Source: Pseudomonadota bacterium
GTDB taxonomy: Bacteria > Pseudomonadota > Alphaproteobacteria > Micavibrionales > UBA2020
Direction of reading: 5' to 3'
NCBI GenBank assembly: GCA_021845905.1
Contig: JAJZVA010000002.1
Location: 76,577 to 140,576, forward strand
DNA: 64,000 nucleotides
Shown: positions 11,235 to 26,130 of the stretch, piece after piece
Numbering within the stretch: the stretch's first letter is position 1
How the letters are laid out: every line of letters begins with the position of its first letter
Translations under genes and position numbers: made by a program
Notes under the pieces: generated by a model
Databases searched by the model: none
What the model was told of the DNA's origin: nothing
Seen by the model: the letters and a program-made list of their open reading frames with translations, nothing else

Positions 11235-11558
11235 TTATTCTTCGGGTTCGGATCCGGGGGCGAGCGCGACGGCGAGCCCGTCCATGTCTTCGCTCAATAT
11301 GATCTGGCACGCAAGACGTGAATTATCCCCGACTTCAAAGGCGTTGTCCAGTTGCGCGATTTCATCTTCCGTGGCGGCGGGCAGCTTTTCCCGCCAGGCT
11401 TCATCCACATAGACGTGGCAGGTGGCGCAGGCGCAGGCGCCGCCGCATTCCGCCTTGATGGGCAGCTTGCCGTCGCGGATGACCTCCATCAGCCGCCAGC
11501 CTTCGAGACCGTCGAGCGTTTGTTCTTTTCCGTTCCTGTCTTTCACGCGGATTTTCAT
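11235..11558 (-). CDS. 2Fe-2S ferredoxin (adrenodoxin/putidaredoxin type)
   Basis: 107 aa from ATG 11558; C-x5-C-x2-C..C pattern ([16 protein letters not shown]); longer track ORF is an upstream extension. Confidence 0.85.
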
Positions 11559-12352
11559 GTTTTCGCGCGCCGCCCGCCGCCGAGGATCTCTTTCAGCGCG
11601 AAGCCCGCCGCCGCGGTCAGCAGGCTCGACGTGAACAGCGACAAGGGCGCGGCGAGAAGATTGAGCAATGTTTGCTGCTGCATGGAAAGGCCGATGCCCG
11701 CGCCCGTCGCGGGGACGCTGTTGGCGAGCACCGCGCCGAGCAGCAGCTGGAAGACGATCATCACCGGAAAAATGCCGAGCAGCGCCATGCCGATCAGCCG
11801 CAGCGAGAACATCGCCCCCCATGTCTTGCGCAGGACACTGCGGATCGGGTGGCCGACGGCGGCGAGAACGGGCACGATGCCGAGACGCGCGCCCCAGAAC
11901 AGCGCGCCGATGATGAGCAGTTCGCCCGTGCCCGCCAGCGCGCCGAGGATGCCCGGCTTTTGCGTCAGTTTCTCGATATGCAGGAGGACGCTGAAGGCCG
12001 TGATGATCGTCATGTTGAAGAGGATGAGGCTGAGCACGGAGGCTTCCATGTCGCGGCGCCGCATGCCGCGCGCGGCGGCGTCGGCGGGCAGGCGGTCGTG
12101 GCGTTCGCCGAGAATCAGGAGGCGCGTCTCCACAAAAAGGAACCATGACAGCAGCAGCATCGAGGGCAGGTTCCAGAGATAAGCCTCGATCTCCGAAGCG
12201 CCGGGCCTTTCATACTGGATGAACAGCGCGCAGGCGATTTGCGCGACCATGGGCACGAGCGCGATTTTGGCCAGATACGCCCTCTCGCGCCAGACGAAAA
12301 GGTAGGCGTTTTTGACGGCGGCGGATATGCTGAACCGGCTGTAGTTGTTCAT
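11555..12352 (-). CDS. hypothetical polytopic membrane protein
   Basis: 265 aa, about 6 hydrophobic segments; stop overlaps ferredoxin start (ATGA at 11555-11558), implying co-translation. Confidence 0.6.
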   Translation of the reverse strand: MNNYSRFSISAAVKNAYLFVWRERAYLAKIALVPMVAQIACALFIQYERPGASEIEAYLWNLPSMLLLSWFLFVETRLLILGERHDRLPADAAARGMRRRDMEASVLSLILFNMTIITAFSVLLHIEKLTQKPGILGALAGTGELLIIGALFWGARLGIVPVLAAVGHPIRSVLRKTWGAMFSLRLIGMALLGIFPVMIVFQLLLGAVLANSVPATGAGIGLSMQQQTLLNLLAAPLSLFTSSLLTAAAGFALKEILGGGRRAKT

Positions 12353-12458
12353 TTTCCCTGTTTATCGTTGGCGGCGTTGCGCGCGGGCTTATTTTGACCA
12401 TTTTGTCCGCCGCCGCCAAGGTTTTCGTATGTTTTTATTATATTTACATAAATACTAT

Positions 12459-12487
12459 TTGACATAGCCATATAAAAGGCATATTCT
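12459..12487 (+). promoter_or_regulatory. candidate sigma70-type promoter TTGACA-17-TATTCT
   Basis: TTGACA 12459-12464, 17-nt spacer, TATTCT 12482-12487 in AT-rich DNA upstream of ORF 12605. Confidence 0.35.
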
Positions 12488-12604
12488 ACATATCAAGATA
12501 TATTGTACTCTGCCCTGTAAAGCGCCGGATAAAGGCGCGGGGCGAACATGCGCCGCGGCGCATACTTTGCGTGCGGCCGCGCTTTACGGAGAGTTTTTAT
12601 TATT

Positions 12605-13081
12605 ATGCCTAAAGGGAACCGCCAACGTGGAAAACAAAGCCTGCCCGCCCTGCCTGACGGCGGGGGCGCGCTTTCAGCTTCTCCGCGCCGCAAGGCGGCT
12701 GACGCAAAAGCCCAGCGCCGCTGGCTTTCCGGCATGATCGCGGGGCAGATCGTTTTCTTCGCGCTGGCCGTGCATGAAATCCCGCTCCTGATGGTGCCGT
12801 CCGCCGCCATTCTTCCGTTGCTTTTCGCCGCGACTTTGACGGGCGGAGTGCTGGGCGGCTTCGTCCAGTCGCGCCTTACCGGCAGGACGACGGATGCCGC
12901 GCAGATGCCGGTGCGCTCTTATATTTTTCAGGCGCTGGCCGAAACCAACCGCAAGCTGGCCGAAATGTTCGTCGAGGAAGAATTCAACGAAGCGGCCAAC
13001 AGCAACTCCGACAGCCGCCGCCTCAAGACCAAGCCGGAGCTGAAAGTCGCGCCGCCGTCAGTGGCTCCGCCACGTTTTTAA
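12605..13081 (+). CDS. hypothetical membrane protein (2 TM) with basic/proline tail
   Basis: 158 aa from ATG 12605; codons from the alternative ATG 12548 to 12604 are AT-rich at third positions, so the shorter form is preferred. Confidence 0.5.
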   Translation: MPKGNRQRGKQSLPALPDGGGALSASPRRKAADAKAQRRWLSGMIAGQIVFFALAVHEIPLLMVPSAAILPLLFAATLTGGVLGGFVQSRLTGRTTDAAQMPVRSYIFQALAETNRKLAEMFVEEEFNEAANSNSDSRRLKTKPELKVAPPSVAPPRF

Positions 13082-13167
13082 AGACTCCTCCGCCACGTTT
13101 TTAAAGACTCCTCCGCCACGTTTTTAAAGACTCCTCCGCCACGTTTTTAAAGACTCCTCCGCCACGT
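13065..13167. repeat. 23-bp tandem direct repeat, 4 full copies plus an 11-bp partial (ctccgccacgtttttaaagactc)
   Basis: Perfect copies start at 13065, 13088, 13111, 13134; partial at 13157. First copy contains the last codons and TAA of ORF 12605-13081. Confidence 0.95.
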
Positions 13168-13180
13168 CTTCACGGATCGT

Positions 13181-13441
13181 TCATGCGGTGAATTCCCGCG
13201 CCTCCTCGCCATCAAGATAAAAGGCGGCGAGATGCCAGATGCCGCGCGTGATGTCCGGCGCGTTTTTGAAGCAGACGTCATAGGGCGGCTCAAGCCGCGC
13301 CATGCGGCGCAGTTCCTCCGCGAGGCTTTTGATGTTTTTGGCGTGGATGTTGTCGTTTGTGCGCACGGTCTTGCTCCCTTTCAAGAAGAAGGCGCCAGAG
13401 AGGATTCTCTGGCGCCGGGAGTTAAGAAGTCGCGTTACCAC
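13181..13441 (-). CDS. hypothetical small protein
   Basis: 86-aa ORF convergent with 12605-13081; no motif recognised. Confidence 0.35.
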   Translation of the reverse strand: MVTRLLNSRRQRILSGAFFLKGSKTVRTNDNIHAKNIKSLAEELRRMARLEPPYDVCFKNAPDITRGIWHLAAFYLDGEEAREFTA

Positions 13442-13658
13442 GACCGCGACGGCCTTTAAGCCGAAGCTCTGGACATGCGCCGCCGCCTCCCGGGCATGAA
13501 AGCACGGAGAAGCGACGTGAATACGGACACGCCACCGGGTAACGCGGGATTCTTAAGCCCCGGTCGCCGCGCGGACGCGGCGACAACGCAAGTGTAAACG
13601 GCTTCAAGGAGAATGAAAAGGCGAAAGCGCGGGATGGAAAAGGGCTGGCCTTCGCGTT

Positions 13659-15893
<2,235 letters not shown>

Positions 15894-16055
15894 TCGGGAA
15901 GACTGGCAAAAATGACCGGGAAGACCGGGTTGCGTTGAGATTCAAGTATTTTGTGGCGAAAATCGTTCCTTTCGAGAACCGGCGCGCAACGGGCTTGAGC
16001 GCCCGTGAGCACCGGAAGCGCAGAAAGGGACGGTTTGCAGACCAAAGGACGCCGA

Positions 16056-17603
16056 ATGTCAACGCAACCCAATAATCCCTGGCTGGTGATGTTCGCCGTC
16101 AGCCTCGCCACCTTCATGGAGGTGCTGGACACGACGATCACCAACGTCTCCCTGCCGCATATCGGCGGAAGCCTCGCCGCGTCGCAGGAGCAGAGCACGT
16201 GGGTGATGACCTCCTATCTCGTCTCCAACGCCATCATCCTGCCGGTTTCGGGCTGGCTCGCCGACGCCATCGGGCGGAAGAAATATTTCATCCTTTCCAT
16301 CGCCTGCTTCACGCTGGCGTCGTTCTTCTGCGGCGCGGCGACGGCCTTGTGGATGATCATCGTCTTCCGCCTGCTGCAGGGCATGGCCGGCGGCGGCCTG
16401 CAGCCGACGCAGAGCGCGATTTTGCTCGACGTCTTTCCGGTCGAGGACAGGCCGAAGGCCTTCGCCCTTTCGGCGGTGACGATGATCGTCGCGCCGGTCA
16501 TCGGGCCGACGCTGGGCGGCTTCATCACCGACAATGTCAGCTGGCGGTGGATTTTCTTCATCAACGTGCCCGTGGGGCTGCTGGCGATCTTTCTCGTCAG
16601 CCGCCTTTATCACGAGCATGCCGAGGCGGCGAAGAAGAAAGTCTCGGTCGATTATTTCGGCTTTCTTCTGATCGCGCTCGGCATCGGCGCGGTGCAGGTC
16701 GTGCTCGACAAGGGTACGCAGTACGACTGGTTCGGCAGCCATTTCATCGTCAGCCTCACCGCGCTGGCGGTCGGCGCGCTGGGGTTCGCCGTCTGGTGGC
16801 TCTTGCGCCAGGAGCATCCGCTGGTGGAATTGCGCCTGCTCAGGATCCCCACCTTCCGCCTCTCCTGCATCCTGATCTTCTTCATGGGGTTCGTGCTTTA
16901 CAGCAGCAGCATTCTCCTGCCGCTGCTGGTGCAGGATTTTTTCCGTTACGACGCGACATGGGCGGGGCTGATCCTCTCGCCGGGCGCGCTGGCGGTGATC
17001 CTGATGATGCCGCTCGTCACGCGCCTCATCCGCGTCTGGAAGCCGAGATACCTGATCGCCACAGGCTTCACGCTCTGCGCGTCGGGCGTTTTCTACACCT
17101 CGCATTTCTCGCCGTCGGCGGACATCTGGACGTTCATCTCGATGCGCGTCCTGACCGTGAGCGGCCTGCCGTTTTTGTTCATTCCCATCAGTACGATGGC
17201 CTACAGCAAGATCGCGCGCCACATGAACAACAAGGCGGCGGCGCTCTATTCCCTCAGCCGCAATCTCGGCGGGAGCTTCGGCATCTCGCTGGTCATGACC
17301 TATCTGTTCCGCCATGCGCAGGCCTGGCAGACCTATCTCGGCGCGCATCTCGCCGCGACAAGCATCGCGACGCAACAGGCCTTGATGCGCAACGCCGCCG
17401 TGCTCAAGGCCGCGGGCGTCGCCCCGTCCGCCGCGCCGGTCGCCGCCAAGGCCCTGTTGTACCGGCAGTTGCAGCAGCAGGCAGGGCTCATGAGTTATGT
17501 CGATTCCTTCCGGCTGATGACGGTGATCATGCTGTTGCTCGTGCCGCTGGCGCTGCTGATGCCCGGCAATTTCCCCAAGAAAGGGGCCGTCGCCGCCGAG
17601 TGA
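16056..17603 (+). CDS. MFS drug:H+ antiporter, DHA2 (EmrB/QacA) family
   Basis: 515 aa from ATG 16056; FMEVLDTTITNVSLPHIGGSL.. signature start, about 14 TM segments. Confidence 0.88.
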   Translation: MSTQPNNPWLVMFAVSLATFMEVLDTTITNVSLPHIGGSLAASQEQSTWVMTSYLVSNAIILPVSGWLADAIGRKKYFILSIACFTLASFFCGAATALWMIIVFRLLQGMAGGGLQPTQSAILLDVFPVEDRPKAFALSAVTMIVAPVIGPTLGGFITDNVSWRWIFFINVPVGLLAIFLVSRLYHEHAEAAKKKVSVDYFGFLLIALGIGAVQVVLDKGTQYDWFGSHFIVSLTALAVGALGFAVWWLLRQEHPLVELRLLRIPTFRLSCILIFFMGFVLYSSSILLPLLVQDFFRYDATWAGLILSPGALAVILMMPLVTRLIRVWKPRYLIATGFTLCASGVFYTSHFSPSADIWTFISMRVLTVSGLPFLFIPISTMAYSKIARHMNNKAAALYSLSRNLGGSFGISLVMTYLFRHAQAWQTYLGAHLAATSIATQQALMRNAAVLKAAGVAPSAAPVAAKALLYRQLQQQAGLMSYVDSFRLMTVIMLLLVPLALLMPGNFPKKGAVAAE

Positions 17604-17667
17604 GGCAGAGGTTCTTGATCTGCGGGCCGGGAAAAAGGATAATGCGCTTCATGACGGATCACGGGAC

Positions 17668-19296
17668 ATGACAGAGGCGTTCGAGCTTCCGCGCGAGGTC
17701 GCCACCGCCTACCGCGCCGCGCCGCAAAAAGCCTTGCGGGTGCTGGCGGCGCTGGCCGACGGCAACGGCCTCAAGGCGGAACAGTTGCGGCTCGTCAGGG
17801 ACGAGACGGAGATCCATATGATCCCCGCCGCGATCACCGTCACGCTTGCGCCGGACATGGCCAAATCGCAGGTGCGCGGCCGCAACCCGCAAGGGGAGGC
17901 GCTGGGCAGCGCGGCCGAAATCATGGCCGCCGCCGAAGCGCTTTTGCCGCAGTTTTTAGAGGGCGAAGCCGCGCGGCAGGAGATTCTCGAAGTCGTGCGC
18001 CGTCTTCCGGGCGAAGGCTTCGGCATGGCGGCGACAAGCATTCCCCTCAAATCCGCGCAGAAGGTTTTCTCGACCGTCGCGCCCTGCGCCGCTTGCGCGG
18101 GCGAAGCGGTCATTCCCTGCCAGCTTTGCCGCGGCACGGGGCGGATGCCCTGCCAGGCCTGCCGCGGCGCGGGCTTCTCGCCCTGCGCCGGTTGCGGCGG
18201 CGGCGGACTTCTGCCGCCCGATGCCGCGGGAAACAGCATGCCCTGCCCGCGCTGCCAGCGGACGGGAAAAATAACCTGTCAGGTTTGCAACGGCGCGCGC
18301 GAGACGGGCTGTCAGGCCTGCGGAGGTCAGGGACGGACGGGCTGCCCGTCTTGCGGACAGACGGGCGCCGAGACGCTGGTTTATCAGATGTCCGCCACGG
18401 CGCGGTGCGTCTTCAAGATCGACTGGCGCAAGGCGCCGCCCGGGGTCAAAGACGTTTTCGAAAAGCTCGGCGGGGATAAAATCGTCGCCCGCAAGCATGC
18501 CGAGGCCTACTGGCAGCTGCCGGAGGTGCGCGGCAAGGAGCTTGTCATCGACGGTCTCGCCTGTTTTCCGGTTTCCGCCGCGACGTTTTCGGTGGCGGGG
18601 AAGATGTTTCCCGCCACGGTCGCGGGGCTGCAGGGCCGCATCGTCACGATGGATCCGGTGCTCGACCCGTTCGTCAAGCCGGGAATTTCCGCGCTGGTCA
18701 AGCTCGCCAAGGGGCCGCTCGCCGCGGCGGCGCTGATCGATACCGCCTGCAAATACAAGCTGACGCGCCGCGTGCTGGCCGACGTGGCGCGCCGCCCGAA
18801 AAAAACGGTCTATCAGGCGCTGGTCGGCGAATACGGCGCGCTGCTGTCGGACAAATACGCCCGCGCCGCCGTCACCAGCGCCGCGCGCGCGCTGCAGGCC
18901 ATCAGCAACGGCCCGCGCGGCAGGGGGCTTGCGCTCGGCGCCGCTCTTTCCGCCGCGCTCGCCGTCGGATATTACATGACGCCGCTCCGTCTTTCCCTGT
19001 TTGCGGCGCTGGCGCAAAGGGGCCTTGAAAAATATATCGCGCTTGCGGATATTGCCGTCGGCCTCGCCGGCGCGCTTCTGACCGTTGTCCTGATCCGCAT
19101 GATGGCGGCGTCGGCGCTGAAAAAAATCCTGCCCGCGGCGGTGCGGGCGGAAGAGACCGGCGGCGGCGCGTCTTTCCGCCCCGGCGCGGGAACGCAGGGA
19201 TTGCTGGCTTTTCCGCTCTGCGCGGCCGTTTCCGTCGCCGCTGCGGCGCTGGCGGCGCACAAGCCGGAGTGGATCATGGTTTTGCTGCGGCGGTGA
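17668..19296 (+). CDS. hypothetical protein with eight CxxC (DnaJ CR-like CxxCxGxG) motifs and C-terminal TM helices
   Basis: 542 aa; aa 140-229 = CAAC..CQLCRGTG..CQACRGAG..CAGCGGGG..CPRCQRTG..CQVCNGAR..CQACGGQG..CPSCGQTG; 3-4 hydrophobic helices in the last ~120 aa. Confidence 0.7.
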   Translation: MTEAFELPREVATAYRAAPQKALRVLAALADGNGLKAEQLRLVRDETEIHMIPAAITVTLAPDMAKSQVRGRNPQGEALGSAAEIMAAAEALLPQFLEGEAARQEILEVVRRLPGEGFGMAATSIPLKSAQKVFSTVAPCAACAGEAVIPCQLCRGTGRMPCQACRGAGFSPCAGCGGGGLLPPDAAGNSMPCPRCQRTGKITCQVCNGARETGCQACGGQGRTGCPSCGQTGAETLVYQMSATARCVFKIDWRKAPPGVKDVFEKLGGDKIVARKHAEAYWQLPEVRGKELVIDGLACFPVSAATFSVAGKMFPATVAGLQGRIVTMDPVLDPFVKPGISALVKLAKGPLAAAALIDTACKYKLTRRVLADVARRPKKTVYQALVGEYGALLSDKYARAAVTSAARALQAISNGPRGRGLALGAALSAALAVGYYMTPLRLSLFAALAQRGLEKYIALADIAVGLAGALLTVVLIRMMAASALKKILPAAVRAEETGGGASFRPGAGTQGLLAFPLCAAVSVAAAALAAHKPEWIMVLLRR

Positions 19297-19315
19297 ATTT
19301 TCGGGAGAGTGATCG

Positions 19316-20440
19316 ATGATGAGGAAGTTCTGTTTTCTTGCTGTTTTTCTGATCTGCGCGGCGGCGCTTCCGGCGCGGGCGCAGATCGTCCAGCCGCCCG
19401 TGCCGCAGGAGACGGCGGAGAAAGACGGGCGCATCGGCACGGTCATCGACGTCGAAGGCCCCGCCGTCCTCACGCCGGTCGGCGGCATGCCCGCCGAAGC
19501 CGCCGTCAACATGCCGGTTTATCTCAACGACATCGCGCAGACGGGCGCGCACGCCCGGCTCTTCATTTTGTTCATCGACAACACCAACGTCGTCCTCTCG
19601 TCCAACGCCATGTTGCGGATCGACAAATACGTTTACGATCCCGATGACGCCACCAGCGCCGACAACAACGCCACTTATACCATCGAGGGCGCGTTCGAAT
19701 ACGTCAGCGGACTGATCGGCCACCGCAAGGACCCGGACGTGCATGTGGAAACGCCGGTCGGTTCCATCGGCATCCGCGGCACGGACTTCTGGGCGGGGCC
19801 GATGGACGGCCAGTATCAGGTGGCGGTGAACGAAGGGCGGGTTTCGCTCAAGACAGACGGCGGCGAGGAGATCGTCAACAAGGGCGAGGGCACTTACGTG
19901 CGCGGCATGTTCGACCGCCCGGCGCCGGCGGAAATCTGGAGCGCGGACAGGTTCCGGCGCATGGCGGCGGAAGTGCGGCTCGCGCGCTATGCCGCGGCCC
20001 TGCGGCGCATGCACGCGCTGCAAAGCCGCCAGCCGGCGTTCAGGGAGGTTTACCGCGCCTATGTGCGCCGCGCCCATCCGCATTGGCTGCGGGATCTTCA
20101 TCCGCGCGGGATGGAGGGCAAAACCGGCGCGGAAAGAATCAGGCAGGAATGGAACGCGCGCAAGTCCGAAGCCGCGCCCGGCCGCGCGGAGAAGAGCCGG
20201 ATGGAAAAAGACCGCACCGAGATGTGGCGGAGCCGCTGGCGCGCCTGGCGGCAACAGCACAGCCACGGCATGCGCGAACAACAGGGTCTGCCGCAGAAAA
20301 ATCAGCAGCGGGAAAGCCTCCGGCCGGAAGACCGGCAACGGGAAAAAGGCGCCGCGCGTCGCCGCGCCCGGCAGACATGGGAAAAAGACCGTGAACGCGG
20401 GGCGAAGAAGCGCCGCGCCGCCGAGGGCACGCGGTATTGA
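19316..20440 (+). CDS. secreted FecR-domain protein with long Arg/Glu/Lys-rich C-terminal half
   Basis: 374 aa; signal peptide MMRKFCFLAVFLICAAALPARA|Q; FecR-like beta region (..VETPVGSIGIRGTDFW..VAVNEGRVSL..); starts 19 nt after the preceding stop. Confidence 0.7.
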   Translation: MMRKFCFLAVFLICAAALPARAQIVQPPVPQETAEKDGRIGTVIDVEGPAVLTPVGGMPAEAAVNMPVYLNDIAQTGAHARLFILFIDNTNVVLSSNAMLRIDKYVYDPDDATSADNNATYTIEGAFEYVSGLIGHRKDPDVHVETPVGSIGIRGTDFWAGPMDGQYQVAVNEGRVSLKTDGGEEIVNKGEGTYVRGMFDRPAPAEIWSADRFRRMAAEVRLARYAAALRRMHALQSRQPAFREVYRAYVRRAHPHWLRDLHPRGMEGKTGAERIRQEWNARKSEAAPGRAEKSRMEKDRTEMWRSRWRAWRQQHSHGMREQQGLPQKNQQRESLRPEDRQREKGAARRRARQTWEKDRERGAKKRRAAEGTRY

Positions 20441-20505: not shown

Positions 20506-22518
20506 TTAAAGCGCCGTCGCCGCGCCGGAAGAGCGCGCCATGCCGAGCGCATCGCGCACTTTGGCGACGATCGCCGCGGCATCGAGCCCCGCCTCTGCAT
20601 ATTGCTTTTCCGGCGTGTCGTGGTCGATGAACGCGTCGGGGAGGACCATGGCGCGGACTTTCAATCCGTGATCGAGCAGCCCCGCATCCGACAGATGCTG
20701 CAAAACAAAAGCGCCGAAGCCGCCGACCGACCCTTCCTCGATGGTGATCAGAACCTCATGATTGCGCGCGAGATCTTCCGTCAGTTCCTTATCCAGCGGC
20801 TTGGCGAAGCGCGCGTCGGCGACCGTGGCGGAAAGCCCCAGCGCCGCGAGCTGGTCGGCCGCCTTCAAGCATTCCTGCAACCGCGCGCCGTAACTGAGCA
20901 GCGCGATTTTTTTGCCCTGTCGCACGATCCTTCCCTTGCCGATCGGCAACACCGCGCCGCGTTCCTTCAATTCCGGGCCCGGCGCGCTCTGCGCGCCTGA
21001 TAAATTTTCAGGGCGCACAGCGCCCGTGCCGTTGCCGCGCGGATACCTTAAAGCGACCGGCCCGTCGTTATAGGCGACCATCGTTGCCGTCATGTCCTGC
21101 AATTCACGCTCGTCCGCCGCCGCCATCAAGACGAAATTCGGCAAACAGCCGAGATAGGCGACGTCGAACGACCCCGCGTGGGTCGCGCCGTCCGCGCCGA
21201 CCAGCCCCGCGCGGTCGATGGCGAATTTCACCGGCAGGTTCTGGAGCGCCACGTCGTGCACCACCTGATCGTAGGCGCGCTGCAAAAACGTCGAATAGAT
21301 CGCGCAGACCGGCTTGAAGCCCTCCGCCGCCAGCCCCGCCGCGAAGGTCACCGCGTGCTGTTCGGCGATGCCGACGTCGAACATGCGCTCCGGAAACGCC
21401 TTCTCAAACAGGTCCAGCCCCGTGCCCGCGGGCATCGCGGCGGTGACGGCGACGATCTTGTCGTCATGTTTCGCTTCGGCGATCAGGCTTTCGGCGAAAA
21501 CTTTGGTATAGGAGGGCGGCGCGTTGTGCGGCTTCTTTTGCGCGCCGGTCACGACGTCGAACTTCGCGACGCCGTGCATCTTGTCGGCGGCGTTTTCGGC
21601 GGGCGCGTAACCCTTGCCCTTTTTCGTCACCACATGAATGAGAATGGGCCCCGGATGCGCGCTGTTTTTCACGTTTTCCAGCACCGGGAGGAGATGGTCG
21701 AAGTTATGCCCGTCGATCGGGCCGACGTAATAAAAACCCATCTCGCCGAACAGCGTGCCGCCGGTCCAGAACCCGCGGGTATATTCCTCCGCCTTGCGCG
21801 CCGCTTCTTTGAGCGGGGGCGGCAGTTTGGCGACGGCTTTCTTGCCGATCTCGCGCATGCTGAGATAAGCCTTGCCGGAAATGAGGCGCGAGAGATAAGC
21901 GCTCATCGCGCCGGTCGGCGGCGCGATCGACATGTCGTTGTCGTTCAAAATCACGATCAGGCGGTTTTTCAAATGCCCGGCGTTGTTCATCGCCTCATAG
22001 GCCATGCCGGCGCTCATCGCCCCGTCGCCGATCACCGCGATAACATGATTTGGCGGCGCAAGCGCGACTGCCGCGCCTTGCGCGGCCGATATATTTTTCG
22101 CCTTCAAATCCCGCGCCACCGCCATGCCCAATCCGGCGGAAATCGAGGTCGAGCTGTGCGCCGCGCCAAAGGGATCGTATTCGCTTTCGCTCCGTTTGGT
22201 GAAACCGGACAAGCCGCCGCCCTGCCTTAAGCTGCGAATACGGTCCTTGCGTCCGGTGAGGATTTTATGCGGATAGGCCTGATGCCCGACATCCCAGATC
22301 AGCCTGTCGTCCGGCGTGTTGAAAACGTAATGGAGCGCGCATGTCAGTTCGACCACGCCCAGCCCCGCGCCGAGGTGTCCGCCGGTCACCGCGACGGCGG
22401 AGATCATTTCCCGCCGCACTTCTTCCGCCAGTTGCGGCAGATCTTCCTTGTCGAGGCGGCGCAAGTCCTCCGGCGTGTTGATGTCATCGAGCAGGGACAA
22501 TGCGAAGGCTTTCTTCAA
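20506..22518 (-). CDS. dxs: 1-deoxy-D-xylulose-5-phosphate synthase
   Basis: 670 aa; ..[36 protein letters not shown]..; [18 protein letters not shown] motif. Confidence 0.96.
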
Positions 22519-23423
22519 AGGCGGCGTTGCAGGACGTAGTAGGCAAGGTCTTTCAAAAGGTCGGTGCGGCCTGCGTCGAACACGCGCAGGTGCGCCGCCG
22601 CCTGTTCGACCAGCATCTCGGCGCGCGCGCGCGCCTGTTCGCGGCCCATGGCGGTGACGAAGGTGGATTTCTTTCCGTCCTGATTGGCGGGCTTGCCCAT
22701 TTCCTTCGCGTCGCCCTCGGCGTCCAGCAGGTCGTCGGTGACCTGAAAGGCGAGGCCGAGGTCGTGCGCGTAATTGCGCAGCGCCTGACGGTGCGCGGGG
22801 TTGGCTTTGCCCAAAATCGCCCCCGCTTCGCAGCAGAAGGCGATCAGCTTGCCGGTCTTGAGGCGCTGCAGGCGGCTGATGGTGCCGACGTCGAATTCCT
22901 GTTTCTCGCCGATCATGTCGAGCATCTGCCCGCCGACCATGCCGTGCGGCCCGATGGCCGAGGCCAGCAGAGAAACCAGTTCGATGCGCACGCGCGGGTC
23001 CTCATGCGTCTCGACGTTGGCGATGATGTCGAAGGCCAGCGCCTGCAGGCCGTCGCCCGCCAAAATCGCCGTCGCCTCGTCATAAGCCTTGTGCAGCGCG
23101 GGCTTGCCGCGTCTTGTATCGGCATTGTCCATCGCCGGAAGATCGTCATGCACGAGGGAATAGCTGTGGATGAACTCGACCGCCGCCGCCACGCGCCTTG
23201 CCCTGGCCGCGTCGACGCCGAAAATCCGCGCCCCTTCCATCACCATGAAGGGCCGGAGGCGCTTGCCGCCCGACAAAACCGCATAGCGCATGCCGTCGAA
23301 CAGCGGCGCTTCGGCCAGTTCCGTCCCCGGCAGGAGGCTGGACATCGTCTTGTTGACGCTCTCGCGGCAGGCCTCCATGGCCTGTTGCAGTTTGGGCGAC
23401 GCCTCGCGGGGGGATGGAGCCAT
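22515..23423 (-). CDS. ispA: (2E,6E)-farnesyl/geranylgeranyl diphosphate synthase
   Basis: 302 aa from ATG 23423; [21 protein letters not shown] and [13 protein letters not shown]; stop overlaps dxs start. Confidence 0.9.
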
Positions 23424-23540
23424 GTTGAAAAACTCTTTCGGTGGTAATGGTTGGAACGAATGCAATCAGGAGTGATTCTTTATAACCTATCGCGGGCGAA
23501 AAAGTCATCCTTTTCAGAAATTTAATTTATGAAAAGGTAT

Positions 23541-23617: not shown

Positions 23618-24649
23618 ATGTTCGGACGCGAAGCCAGAAGAAGAAAAGAAGAACAAAGACAGCTGGAACAAAGGAAAGAAAACCTGCTGGCCGCGGCGCG
23701 GAACAACGATACCGCCGGCGTGGTGAAATATTTCATGCGCCGCCCGGTTGTGTTTGATGCCTGCCTTGCCGCCGTGGAGGCGGGTTCCGTCGATGCGCTG
23801 AAGGCTTTATTGCGGAGAAACCTGGGTTTTGACTTTTCGGAATTCAGAGACCAGGACGTTCTGAAAGCAAAGCGTCTCGTCAATGCAGCGCGCGGCTCCG
23901 ATAAAGCCGACGCCTTGCTCACCGTCCTTTTCGCGGCAAACGAAACAACGGAATGCGGCAAGCTGCACCAATCGACGTTCATTTGTCCTGAAATCTCCCA
24001 CGACATACTGAGATGCATCCTGCTCATGACGCCATCAACCTTCGAGACCGCCATCGACGTTATCGGCCTTGAGGATACCGACAGGTTGAAATTCATCCTC
24101 GCCTTTCTGCCGAAGGACGGCAGCGGGCAGGGCGCGCTTGACAAGGCGCTGAGCGTTTCCGCTGAAAGAAACGACGTTGAAAAAGCGCAAATGCTCCTCG
24201 ACAAGGGCGCGAACGCCAATCATGCCGAGGCGCAGGCGTTGCAAAACGCGGCGATGGCCGGTCATATGGACATGGTCTGTCTGTTGTTGCTGCATGTCGA
24301 TCTTCTGCTCTACGGCAACGACGTCTCGGCGCAGGTCGAGCATGCCCATCCCGACCTCGCGAAGCTGATCGCCGACGCGACCGCGATTTGCTTCCAGGAA
24401 GAAGAAAGCCCCTTTGTCGCGCTCAATAAAAACATTCTGGAGGAGCGGCAAACGCTCTCCGGCGGCAAAACGCTGACCACGATATTCAATTTCGAGACAC
24501 GGCAGCAGCATAACGCCATCGAAACGCCGCAGGGAACGGAGAAAATGACCACCGTCAACTTCAAGGATATCGATGCCGGCGTCCTTGAAAAAATGCGCCG
24601 CAAACTCGACGGACTCAACGCTGCAAAACGCCTCGTCAACAAACCTTAA
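23618..24649 (+). CDS. ankyrin-repeat-like hypothetical protein, paralog A1
   Basis: 343 aa; MFGREARRRKEEQRQLEQRKE charged N-terminus; ANK-like ..AERNDVEKAQMLLDKGANANHAEAQALQNAAMAGHMDMVCLLL..; conserved C-terminal module ..TLTTIFNFETRQQHNAI..VNFKDIDAGVLEKMRRK. Confidence 0.7.
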   Translation: MFGREARRRKEEQRQLEQRKENLLAAARNNDTAGVVKYFMRRPVVFDACLAAVEAGSVDALKALLRRNLGFDFSEFRDQDVLKAKRLVNAARGSDKADALLTVLFAANETTECGKLHQSTFICPEISHDILRCILLMTPSTFETAIDVIGLEDTDRLKFILAFLPKDGSGQGALDKALSVSAERNDVEKAQMLLDKGANANHAEAQALQNAAMAGHMDMVCLLLLHVDLLLYGNDVSAQVEHAHPDLAKLIADATAICFQEEESPFVALNKNILEERQTLSGGKTLTTIFNFETRQQHNAIETPQGTEKMTTVNFKDIDAGVLEKMRRKLDGLNAAKRLVNKP

Positions 24650-24662
24650 AGGAGAAAAAACC

Positions 24663-25709
24663 ATGTTTGGACGCGAAAGAAAAGCGCGGGAGCGCGCGGA
24701 AGCGGAGCGGCTGGAACAGGAGGCGCGCAAGGCGGCGGCGCGCGCCGCGGACGAGGCGCGGGCGCAAAAACAGCGCGAAGGCCTGGAGGCGGCGCTCAAG
24801 ACGGACGATCCGTCGCTGTTCGACGAGCAATATTTCGTTTTCGACGTCAGCCCGGTCAACAGAATCTACGATGCCGCGAAAAGAGCCATTGCGCAAAACG
24901 CGCCGAAAGTCTTTCATGCGCTGACCCACGGAAAGTTTCCGAACTACTACAGCTCCTTCACCTTCGGGAGCACATGGGAGGAATCAAAACAGAACGTCCG
25001 CCTGTTGCTCGCCGACATATCCGCATCCGCGGAGCCGGGCCTCTTCTGGGAGATCATGCGCGACGGCAATGAAAAATCGACCGTGGATAAACCACGGCTT
25101 GCTTCCGCGGAGTTTCTGACCCCCGCCGCGTCGCCGGAATTCATCCATGACCAGCTCCTCAAGAATCCGGAGCTCTTCACGACCTGCCTTCGCGACATCG
25201 GCGTTCGGGATCCGGAAAAGCTGGAGCTTATCCTTGCCTTCGCGCCGAAAGACGACAGCGCGCACATCGCGCTGGTCGCGGCGGTGGTGGAGGTCTCTCG
25301 AAATGAGGACGCGCTTGATCAGCTCGCGGCGCTTTTGCCGCATATCGATCTGGCGCGGCACGGCGCGCACATGGCGGCGCTGGTCAGGTTTTTCAACCCC
25401 GAGATGGCAAAGCTGATTTCGGATGCGACGGAGATCATGCGCTGCACCCCTGAGGCGGAAGAAACCGTCCATCCGGCGCAGGAGAGCGACATACACGTTG
25501 AAAAGCAGGCCATTCCCGGCGGCGGCACGCTGACGGCCATCTTCAACTTCACGCTCAAACAGCAGCATAACGTCATCAGGATGCCGGGCGAAGACCCTGT
25601 CGCGACCACCGTCCAGTTCAGGGACATCGACAAGGGCGTTCTCGCCGCGATGCGCCGAAAATACGACGCCGCGCAAAAACCGCCGGAAAGCCCGCCGCCC
25701 GCGCCTTAA
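24663..25709 (+). CDS. hypothetical protein, paralog A2 of 23618-24649
   Basis: 348 aa from ATG 24663 (RBS aaaggag); MFGRERKARERAEAERLEQE..; shares LILAFAPKD.., AKLISDATEI.., ..TLTAIFNFTLKQQHNVI..VQFRDIDKGVLAAMRRK with A1. Confidence 0.7.
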   Translation: MFGRERKARERAEAERLEQEARKAAARAADEARAQKQREGLEAALKTDDPSLFDEQYFVFDVSPVNRIYDAAKRAIAQNAPKVFHALTHGKFPNYYSSFTFGSTWEESKQNVRLLLADISASAEPGLFWEIMRDGNEKSTVDKPRLASAEFLTPAASPEFIHDQLLKNPELFTTCLRDIGVRDPEKLELILAFAPKDDSAHIALVAAVVEVSRNEDALDQLAALLPHIDLARHGAHMAALVRFFNPEMAKLISDATEIMRCTPEAEETVHPAQESDIHVEKQAIPGGGTLTAIFNFTLKQQHNVIRMPGEDPVATTVQFRDIDKGVLAAMRRKYDAAQKPPESPPPAP

Positions 25710-25882: not shown

Positions 25883-26119
25883 TTATTCCGAAACGGAGAA
25901 TTTCTCCGTTTTGACCGCGCCGTCATTGCCGAGCGTGATTTTCTCGATGCGGGTCTGCGCCTCTTTCAGCTTGTCCTCGCACAGCTTCTTGAGCGCCATG
26001 CCGCGCTCGTAAGAGGCGATCGAGGCGTCAAGGTCCGCGCCGCCGGATTCGAGCTGGCGGACGATCTTCTCCAGTTCGGCGAGGGCGGATTCGAAGGTGA
26101 CGTTTTTCTCGGCGGCCAT
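25883..26119 (-). CDS. xseB: exodeoxyribonuclease VII small subunit
   Basis: 78 aa from ATG 26119 with strong RBS aaggaggg; ..FESALAELEKIVRQLESGGADLDASIASYERGMAL.. Confidence 0.9.
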   Translation of the reverse strand: MAAEKNVTFESALAELEKIVRQLESGGADLDASIASYERGMALKKLCEDKLKEAQTRIEKITLGNDGAVKTEKFSVSE

Positions 26120-26130
26120 GAAACCCTCCT

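Follow-up and report, generated by a model that had tools for sequence, protein, structure and literature searches.

To our knowledge, proteins that carry DnaJ-type zinc fingers without a J domain have been studied almost only in plastids. The plastid proteins help to assemble membrane complexes and Rubisco and to control their quality; they include ORANGE (OR), ZnJ6, FIP, LQY1, and the soluble BSD2, all with CxxCxGxG modules, which OR, ZnJ6, and FIP join to a membrane anchor. Here we describe a bacterial protein, ORF1, which likewise combines such modules with a membrane anchor and has no J domain. Its gene lies on a stretch of 64,000 nucleotides (hereafter the window) of contig JAJZVA010000002.1, assigned to the alphaproteobacterial order Micavibrionales (assembly GCA_021845905.1). 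The open reading frame (ORF) for ORF1 (17668-19296, forward strand, 542 residues) is followed by that for the FecR-domain protein ORF2 (19316-20440, forward strand, 374 residues), both where the initial annotation of this stretch had placed them and with the 19-nt gap it reported. By analogy with the DnaJ cysteine-rich (CR) domain, BSD2, OR, and ZnJ6, we tentatively propose that ORF1 could be a J-domain-less, membrane-tethered zinc-finger holdase or thiol-disulfide chaperone.

The activities documented for the plastid proteins are holdase activity and thiol-disulfide chemistry (PMC7865324, PMC12063368, PMC9225386). For one functional analogue, zinc binding is reported together with a holding and an oxidising activity (PMC7865324), the OR proteins are DnaJE1 chaperones (PMC12063368), and a disulfide reductase activity is assigned to them (PMC9225386). 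Two further reports state that phytoene synthase is stabilised by OR proteins (PMC5025653) and that DnaJ itself has oxidoreductase activity (PMC8262869).

The plastid J-less proteins are ~100-300 residues long with a single four-motif module (two Zn), whereas in ORF1 a pair of such modules in tandem, with a rigid period of 11 residues, interrupts a ~320-residue scaffold that is followed by three C-terminal transmembrane (TM) helices. In addition, ORF1 is bacterial, is predicted to face the cytoplasm, and has no detectable homology to the plastid proteins outside the cysteine array. With type I Hsp40/DnaJ, where four CxxCxGxG motifs make two zinc centres, it shares a CR domain of this type inserted in a beta-rich domain, but the motif spacing of ORF1 (11-11-11) and its membrane anchoring are unlike DnaJ. 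Neither ORF1 (E ≤ 1) nor any of 60 family members matched the J domain with its HPD motif (PF00226), the DnaJ C-terminal domains I/II (PF01556) and the glycine/phenylalanine-rich region had no Pfam match, and Foldseek found no DnaJ/Ydj1 match outside the CR segment. Therefore, lacking the J domain, the glycine/phenylalanine-rich region, and the C-terminal domains, ORF1 is not a DnaJ. We found no described counterpart of the doubled 11-residue-period module, the ~320-residue scaffold, or the three-TM anchor in the literature that we searched or in the Pfam, NCBIfam, and PDB databases.

The Cysteine Array of ORF1

The CxxC motifs of ORF1 start at residues 140, 151, 162, and 173 and at residues 193, 204, 215, and 226, forming two four-motif blocks with an exact 11-residue period. 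The eight motifs within ~90 residues described in the initial annotation are thus real, and 20,000 shuffles of the protein gave 0.71 CxxC on average and never more than five. In contrast, the description of most of them as CxxCxGxG does not hold for ORF1 itself, where only four of the eight have this strict form, six have CxxCxG, and the family consensus reaches seven. The two blocks are identical at 17 of 44 residues, as would be expected after a tandem duplication. None of the 16 knuckle cysteines varies among the 18 close homologues, and 15 of them remain invariant in an alignment of 60 family sequences (20-43% identity to the window protein), the last one being 98% conserved.

Judged by profile and structural similarity, the array belongs to the DnaJ/BSD2 CR-domain superfamily. 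Among PDB entries, the family profile matched BSD2 (9ci1, E = 1.4e-4; 6ekb, E = 1.5e-3), anti-TRAP, and the CR domain of Escherichia coli DnaJ (1exk, E = 3.6e-4), with all matches confined to residues ~150-240. In a Foldseek search of the PDB, BSD2 (6ekb) was the sole match (probability 1.00, 61 columns, 31% identity, target TM-score 0.68), nothing else appearing at E < 0.4, so that BSD2 is the best match of the array in both sequence profile and structure. The search of the BFVD structures also retrieved CR-type matches only. Among the 60 family members, the recurrent Pfam matches are exclusively CR models, namely BSD2_CRD (PF25436) in 27 (best E = 9.8e-8), GRXCR1-2_C in 16, DnaJ_CXXCXGXG (PF00684) in 15, and Anti-TRAP in five. 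These matches to profiles, structures, and family members support the earlier suggestion of a DnaJ-type cysteine-rich segment large enough for four metal sites. The four-motif CR domain typical of type I DnaJ therefore occurs twice in tandem in ORF1, without a J domain as in BSD2/DnaJE-type proteins, and the eight motifs would form four tetra-cysteine zinc sites.

Scaffold and Membrane Topology

Outside the array, ORF1 resembles nothing in the databases searched. The protein has no significant match in Pfam, NCBIfam, or PADLOC, and nothing in Pfam, the PDB, or BFVD matches its scaffold. The domain combination, which the initial annotation did not recognise, is accordingly without a match in Pfam, NCBIfam, PADLOC, or the PDB apart from the cysteine array, and without a named homologue; the same applies to its N-terminal ~140 residues, unmatched in Pfam and the PDB. 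The middle region was estimated at ~190 residues and is indeed present, although its size is ~182 residues.

An AlphaFold2 model built from an 18-sequence alignment (mean predicted local distance difference test score, pLDDT, 86.7; predicted template modelling score 0.62) starts with N-terminal helices followed by a long beta-hairpin (residues 40-70), two helices, and a strand (123-139) that leads into the knuckle array (140-233). After the array come a strand (234-251), a further sheet (279-328), a helical bundle (333-415), and long hydrophobic helices up to the C-terminus. From this order of secondary-structure elements in the model, the two strands flanking the array would pair as a hairpin, the array being held between two long beta-strands. 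Conserved GNG and GFG motifs are found in the N-terminal half; G32 and G320 are invariant and N33 is 98% conserved in the 60 sequences, while C361 is invariant among the close homologues.

Hydropathy averaged over the 60 sequences shows three peaks (~422-437, ~458-476, and ~513-528), in agreement with the lower figure of the three to four TM helices previously proposed, a fourth not being borne out. The mean number of lysines plus arginines per sequence is 4.45 before TM1, 1.5 in the TM1-TM2 loop, 4.83 in the TM2-TM3 loop, and 1.0 in the C-terminal tail, and no N-terminal signal peptide is present in ORF1. Together, the three helices, this positive-inside pattern, and the absence of a signal peptide point to an N-in/C-out orientation, with the ~415-residue domain and all zinc knuckles predicted to be cytoplasmic; this is also the answer given by topology prediction to the question, raised in the initial annotation, of which side the knuckles face. 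The predicted periplasmic part would then be limited to ~30 residues, a ~20-residue loop and a ~12-residue tail. Conserved residues on this side are R441 (81%), D461 (93%; outer end of TM2), and P533 (86%) and W535 (93%), which form a PxW motif in the tail.

An Unnamed Alphaproteobacterial Family

A word-indexed search retrieved 18 ORF1 homologues of ~535-545 residues (42-65% identity) from alphaproteobacterial metagenome-assembled genomes (MAGs), and the same 18 were recovered using the 60-sequence alignment. In contrast, with an exhaustive HMMER profile search the number of representatives (of clusters at 50% identity) with E ≤ 1e-30 rose to at least 303; of the 150 best, almost every one aligned over most of its length. 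Eight CxxC motifs with a period of 11 are present in 127 of 148 representatives. The 20 family representatives that we looked up and the 18 close homologues are all unnamed or named only "hypothetical protein". A pattern scan with the close-homologue alignment located six genomes (6 of 185,579 species) and six metagenome loci, numbers that describe the close clade to which the patterns are specific and not the size of the family. A tblastn search of plasmids gave no match, and matches in PHROGs were limited to the zinc-finger and FecR segments, the matched families being of unknown function. The taxonomic range is known from a few MAG titles (Alphaproteobacteria, Rhodospirillales) and from a gene order typical of Alphaproteobacteria. 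ORF1 is a member of an unnamed, vertically inherited, widespread family, whose members known to date all come from uncultivated Alphaproteobacteria.

Some family members have six (3+3), two, or no CxxC motifs (knuckle-number variants occur among representatives P0110, P0137, P0144, P0148, P0157, and P0249) and keep the flanking scaffold intact. Therefore, the array behaves as an insert that differs in size between members, and the scaffold may function independently of the zinc fingers.

An origin of this gene in a defence system or a mobile element was also considered and rejected: PADLOC gave no match, distant family members occupy a core, origin-proximal position, and in one close locus (L005) the integrase island has inserted beside the gene and does not include it.

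Proposed Function of ORF1

If ORF1 is a membrane-tethered zinc-finger holdase or thiol-disulfide chaperone, its ~415-residue domain would be held at the inner membrane by the three C-terminal TM helices, and the two tandem four-motif modules, inserted in the scaffold, would form a zinc-finger arm. This arm would hold or redox-edit client proteins on the cytoplasmic face of the inner membrane. The genes just upstream encode transporters, and in relatives the NCS1 permease gene overlaps the start of the ORF1 gene (ATGA or GTGA); the clients in this sub-lineage are therefore plausibly these upstream-encoded transporters, EmrB here and the NCS1 permease in relatives. Co-orientation with the transporter genes, together with the NCS1 overlap in the sub-lineage, makes co-transcription likely.

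Several observations weigh against this proposal. The chaperone role is drawn solely from analogy with other CR-domain proteins, and ORF1 itself falls below the threshold of every CR-domain Pfam model (the best being GRXCR1-2_C, E = 0.032). The scaffold, which amounts to ~60% of the protein, has no recognisable relative from which an activity could be inferred. A few members lack zinc knuckles altogether, and so the core function may reside elsewhere than in the array. Distant members have no transporter neighbour, which excludes a role specific to transporters for the family as a whole. Finally, the metal bound by these rubredoxin-like knuckles could be iron instead of zinc.

A broader proposal, which we consider unlikely, is that the family might constitute an undescribed class of bacterial inner-membrane proteins with a new cytoplasmic fold and an expandable array of 0-8 knuckles, a bacterial counterpart of OR/ZnJ6/LQY1 in which a zinc-thiolate switch or a rubredoxin-like iron chain would link redox conditions in the cytoplasm to how membrane proteins fold, how stable they are, or how active they are.

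The FecR-Domain Protein ORF2

ORF2 was previously described as a protein with a signal peptide and a FecR domain, and both are confirmed (signal peptide with the end LPARA|Q; PF04773 FecR, E = 2.1e-10, 41.4 bits for a cutoff of 24). Its AlphaFold2 model (pLDDT 78.3) consists of an all-beta domain (residues 39-205), confident and conserved helices (210-259), and lower-confidence helices beyond. The periplasmic domain has the fold found in FecR/PupR-type anti-sigma regulators, as seen in Foldseek matches at E ~ 1e-6 and probability 1.00 to BDI_1681 (4m0n, E = 9.9e-7) and to the C-terminal cell-surface signalling domain of PupR (6ovk_R, E = 2.9e-6). However, FecR and PupR carry a cytoplasmic anti-sigma domain and a TM helix, where ORF2 has a cleavable-type signal peptide, and a C-terminal STN-binding subdomain, where ORF2 has a basic helical/disordered tail. 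No cytoplasmic anti-sigma domain with TM helix is present in ORF2, as its only hydrophobic segment is the signal peptide (residues 1-23) and the beta domain begins as early as ~36; the Pfam anti-sigma N-domain is not matched, and no STN-binding C-terminal subdomain was found. Genes for extracytoplasmic function (ECF) sigma factors or TonB-dependent receptors are absent within ~6 kb in the window and, according to the Pfam lists, within 8 kb in relatives, in line with the initial annotation. In architecture, ORF2 is closer to secreted proteins in which the FecR domain stands alone, for example LipL45 and Lsa33 of Leptospira (their NCBIfam matches being weak).

The first half of the beta domain also matches the retention module of the giant RTX adhesin MpIBP (5ix9), both by profile (E = 1.6e-6) and by Foldseek (probability 1.00, target TM-score 0.74), although ORF2 is small and Sec-exported while the MpIBP module is the N-terminus of a type I-secreted adhesin. 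Indeed, residues 29-106 (19400-19633), the first half of the FecR fold, are homologous to the "cell surface anchoring" domain of this Marinomonas ice-binding adhesin, a homology that links FecR-type domains to adhesin retention modules.

The C-terminal 170 residues, which had been described as an Arg-rich low-complexity region, are Arg-rich as reported (R 22%, E 10%, K 5%, W 4%). Low complexity does not extend throughout, however, as residues 205-260 form conserved, confidently modelled helices and only residues 261-374 constitute a variable tail. ORF2 homologues are 254-473 residues long and all have a basic tail, with neither length nor sequence conserved past residue 260. The possibility that this tail is an out-of-frame artefact was rejected, since the closest relative (L011) keeps it in frame (50% over 120 residues) and all homologues have one. 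ORF2 is an ordinary stand-alone, Sec-exported periplasmic FecR-domain protein with a disordered basic tail and without the features of an anti-sigma regulator.

Gene Neighborhood and Alternative Explanations

We compared 14 distinct close loci (at least 42% identity, window included) with seven distant loci (24-39% identity). The typical gene order in the close loci is Fer2 / Pyr_redox_2 / (AhpC) / EmrA / EmrB / NCS1 / ORF1 / FecR, whereas in the distant loci it is parAB-gidAB-mnmE … ORF1 … rho-hemJ-hemH-hemE, often after DUF255 and dienelactone-hydrolase genes. The distant loci (L015, L016/L017, L018, L019, L023, L026, and L027) all lie in this origin-proximal block; the product of the DUF255 gene is thioredoxin-like, and TerD and Na/Ca-exchanger genes recur downstream in two of them.

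The gene for the NCS1 nucleobase:cation symporter (PF02133, TIGR00800; 497 residues; L001 6511-8004) is directly upstream of ORF1 in 10 of the 12 close loci where this could be assessed, against none of the seven distant ones, and its stop codon overlaps the ORF1 start by 4 nt in all seven junctions read. The two assessable close loci without it are L005 and the window, where a 64-nt spacer is found instead; in the window, the gene was either lost or never acquired. These observations, together with the conservation of D461 in the membrane, would fit a role of ORF1, in this sub-lineage, as a subunit dedicated to assembling or regulating the permease (NCS1, EmrB, or both), docked by its three TM helices and gating or stabilising the transporter with its zinc-finger arm. 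We regard this as improbable, as ORF1 is intact in the window despite the absence of NCS1, distant members lie in the mnmE/rho/hemE region without an adjoining transporter, and the NCS1 link, like that with FecR, remains within one syntenic lineage.

The FecR gene directly follows the ORF1 homologue in nine of the 14 close loci, window included, and in none of the seven distant loci. In one more close locus (L013) it lies ~3 kb downstream behind an inserted MacAB-like cassette, so that it occurs within 3 kb in 10 of 14, and it is missing from four (L005, L007, L008, and L024) and from all seven distant loci. The co-occurrence expected from the two-gene pair of the initial annotation is thus found as adjacency in most close loci and fails in the others and in all distant ones, which upholds the pair only in part. 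Synteny among the close loci extends beyond 10 kb, so that the ORF1-FecR adjacency is weak evidence of a functional link, and since FecR is found in close loci only, and not in all of these, the association is bound to one syntenic sub-lineage. The FecR gene is therefore a lineage-specific operon neighbor of ORF1 and not an obligate partner; the NCS1 link is at least as strong and equally lineage-bound.

At L007 and L008, the position of FecR is occupied by an unrelated MscS-like protein. A protein of 594-619 residues without Pfam match is found at this position in three close loci (L007 10002-11786, L008 9955-11814, and L022 7973-9781), with a 61-residue reverse ORF between it and the ORF1 homologue; it has a signal peptide, TM helices, and a coiled coil, and its C-terminus bears an MscS-like motif. 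That the 594-residue protein of L007/L008 is a divergent FecR was rejected, as it has no FecR similarity and has an MscS-like C-terminus with coiled coil and TM helices. In L005/L014 (9999-17626), an integrase-led island (phage integrase, AlpA, Toprim, AAA_25, and a second integrase) directly follows the ORF1 homologue, and its arrival may explain the displacement of the FecR gene; on the upstream side, the same loci carry an AAA_15/AAA_23 ATPase pair.

The initial annotation suggested that ORF1 and the FecR protein could form a transmembrane sensing or redox-switch pair. In our elaboration of this model, a periplasmic sensor would signal via the membrane anchor to a cytoplasmic zinc-thiolate switch as in Hsp33/RsrA. 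The two genes indeed share a strand and are separated by 19 nt without a terminator, their adjacency recurs as described above, redox genes (AhpC/Redoxin and thioredoxin-reductase-like Pyr_redox_2) recur nearby in relatives, and ORF1 has the conserved periplasmic PxW tail and an Asp at the periplasmic end of TM2. Nevertheless, the pair as stated is not supported and has a low probability in our view: FecR is missing from the loci listed above, the extended synteny weakens the adjacency argument, only ~30 residues of ORF1 are periplasmic, its Pfam analysis shows no kinase, helix-turn-helix, anti-sigma, or cyclase output domain, and neither a sigma factor nor a TonB-dependent receptor is encoded nearby. 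ORF1 may nonetheless have a thiol/zinc redox role.

The least probable of these alternatives is a metal-centred function, in which the 16 cysteines would make four sites that buffer or deliver zinc (as a metallochaperone or store) or form a rubredoxin-like iron electron relay at the membrane; the sixteen conserved cysteines in paired knuckles of rubredoxin-like CxxC geometry and the 2Fe-2S ferredoxin and ferredoxin/thioredoxin-reductase-like flavoprotein genes conserved a few kb upstream would fit it, but the profile fits the DnaJ/BSD2 CR domains, in which zinc is structural, rather than rubredoxin, the upstream redox genes lie on the opposite strand within a synteny shared by the whole lineage, and some members lack the array altogether. 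The probability left by these explanations and by the holdase or thiol-disulfide chaperone proposed above falls to possible functions carried by the unrecognised scaffold.

Organization of the Locus

The features of the locus are given in Table 1. The 19-nt spacing between ORF1 and ORF2 contains a ribosome-binding site (GGGAGAG) and no terminator was found in it; from the co-orientation, the short gap, and this site, ORF2 is probably co-transcribed with ORF1. The emrAB-like pump reported upstream is confirmed by TIGR00711 (E = 4.7e-124) and the HlyD models, the two genes encoding the 14-TM DHA2 MFS permease and the HlyD-family fusion protein that make up EmrAB-type DHA2 pumps. EmrB is 68-89% identical to that of syntenic relatives, in whose loci an EmrA gene also precedes it, and no TolC-like gene was seen near emrA/emrB. 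Searches of Rfam across the window gave no match.

Table 1. Coordinates of the genes and protein regions of the ORF1-ORF2 locus in the window.
Feature	Coordinates	Strand	Basis
EmrA-like fusion protein of the HlyD family (first gene of the cluster)	14859..15893	+	PF16576 HlyD_D23 (E = 7e-23), PF13437, PF00529
EmrB-type DHA2 MFS efflux permease	16005..17603	+	TIGR00711 efflux_EmrB (E = 4.7e-124, 414.8 bits, cutoff 230.2); MFS_1 (E = 1.1e-57)
Spacer of 64 nt where relatives hold the NCS1 gene	17604..17667		Weak sigma-70-like match at 17615-17643
ORF1 residues 1-139, predicted cytoplasmic N-terminal half of the alpha/beta scaffold	17668..18084	+	AlphaFold2 model; no Pfam/PDB match
ORF1 residues 140-183, first block of four CxxC knuckles, DnaJ/BSD2 CR-type	18085..18216	+	Motif positions, PDB profile matches
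ORF1 residues 193-236, second four-CxxC block, apparent tandem duplicate	18244..18375	+	Block identity, Foldseek match to BSD2 6ekb
ORF1 residues 237-415, second scaffold half	18376..18912	+	AlphaFold2 model, conservation; no match in Pfam, PDB, BFVD
ORF1 residues 416-542 and stop, membrane anchor with three TM helices, predicted N-in/C-out	18913..19296	+	Family-averaged hydropathy, lysine plus arginine counts
ORF2 residues 1-23, Sec-type signal peptide (…LPARA|Q)	19316..19384	+	Hydrophobic N-terminus and AxA-type end kept in 15 homologues
ORF2 residues 24-205, periplasmic FecR-fold beta domain	19385..19930	+	PF04773, Foldseek, profile match to 5ix9
ORF2 residues 206-260, conserved Arg/Ala-rich helical segment	19931..20095	+	Alignment; helices 210-259 with pLDDT 84-91
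ORF2 residues 261-374 and stop, basic tail, net charge +17	20096..20440	+	Composition; length and sequence variable among homologues

Upstream, a block at 11235-15155, with equivalents in L006-L008, is conserved through the lineage and encodes a 2Fe-2S ferredoxin (PF00111), a ~265-residue membrane protein without Pfam match, a small ORF, and a thioredoxin-reductase-like flavoprotein (Pyr_redox_2); in some relatives, an AhpC/Redoxin gene is added before emrA. Downstream of ORF2, dxs and ispA are found on the minus strand (20506-23465). They are followed by two tandem paralogous genes (23618-24649 and ~24663-25709, forward strand; 32% identity, E = 3e-41), which encode proteins with a charged N-terminus and, in the first, ankyrin repeats. 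Because this pair lies between ispA/dxs and xseB (near 25883-26120, minus strand; PF02609), the usual xseB-ispA-dxs arrangement is interrupted.

Significance

The locus calls for caution in one respect, as a FecR domain adjoining a membrane protein does not imply cell-surface signalling. For annotation, the family has at least 303 clusters at 50% identity without a Pfam or NCBIfam model, and one is definable from the present alignments. A conserved bacterial family of this kind would broaden the J-less zinc-finger class by a doubled module joined to a membrane anchor and to a scaffold that nothing in Pfam, NCBIfam, or the PDB matches. Such a family would, in addition, offer a tractable system for the role of tandem zinc-knuckle arrays at the membrane, in which the natural variation between eight, six, two, and no knuckles provides a ready-made structure-function series.

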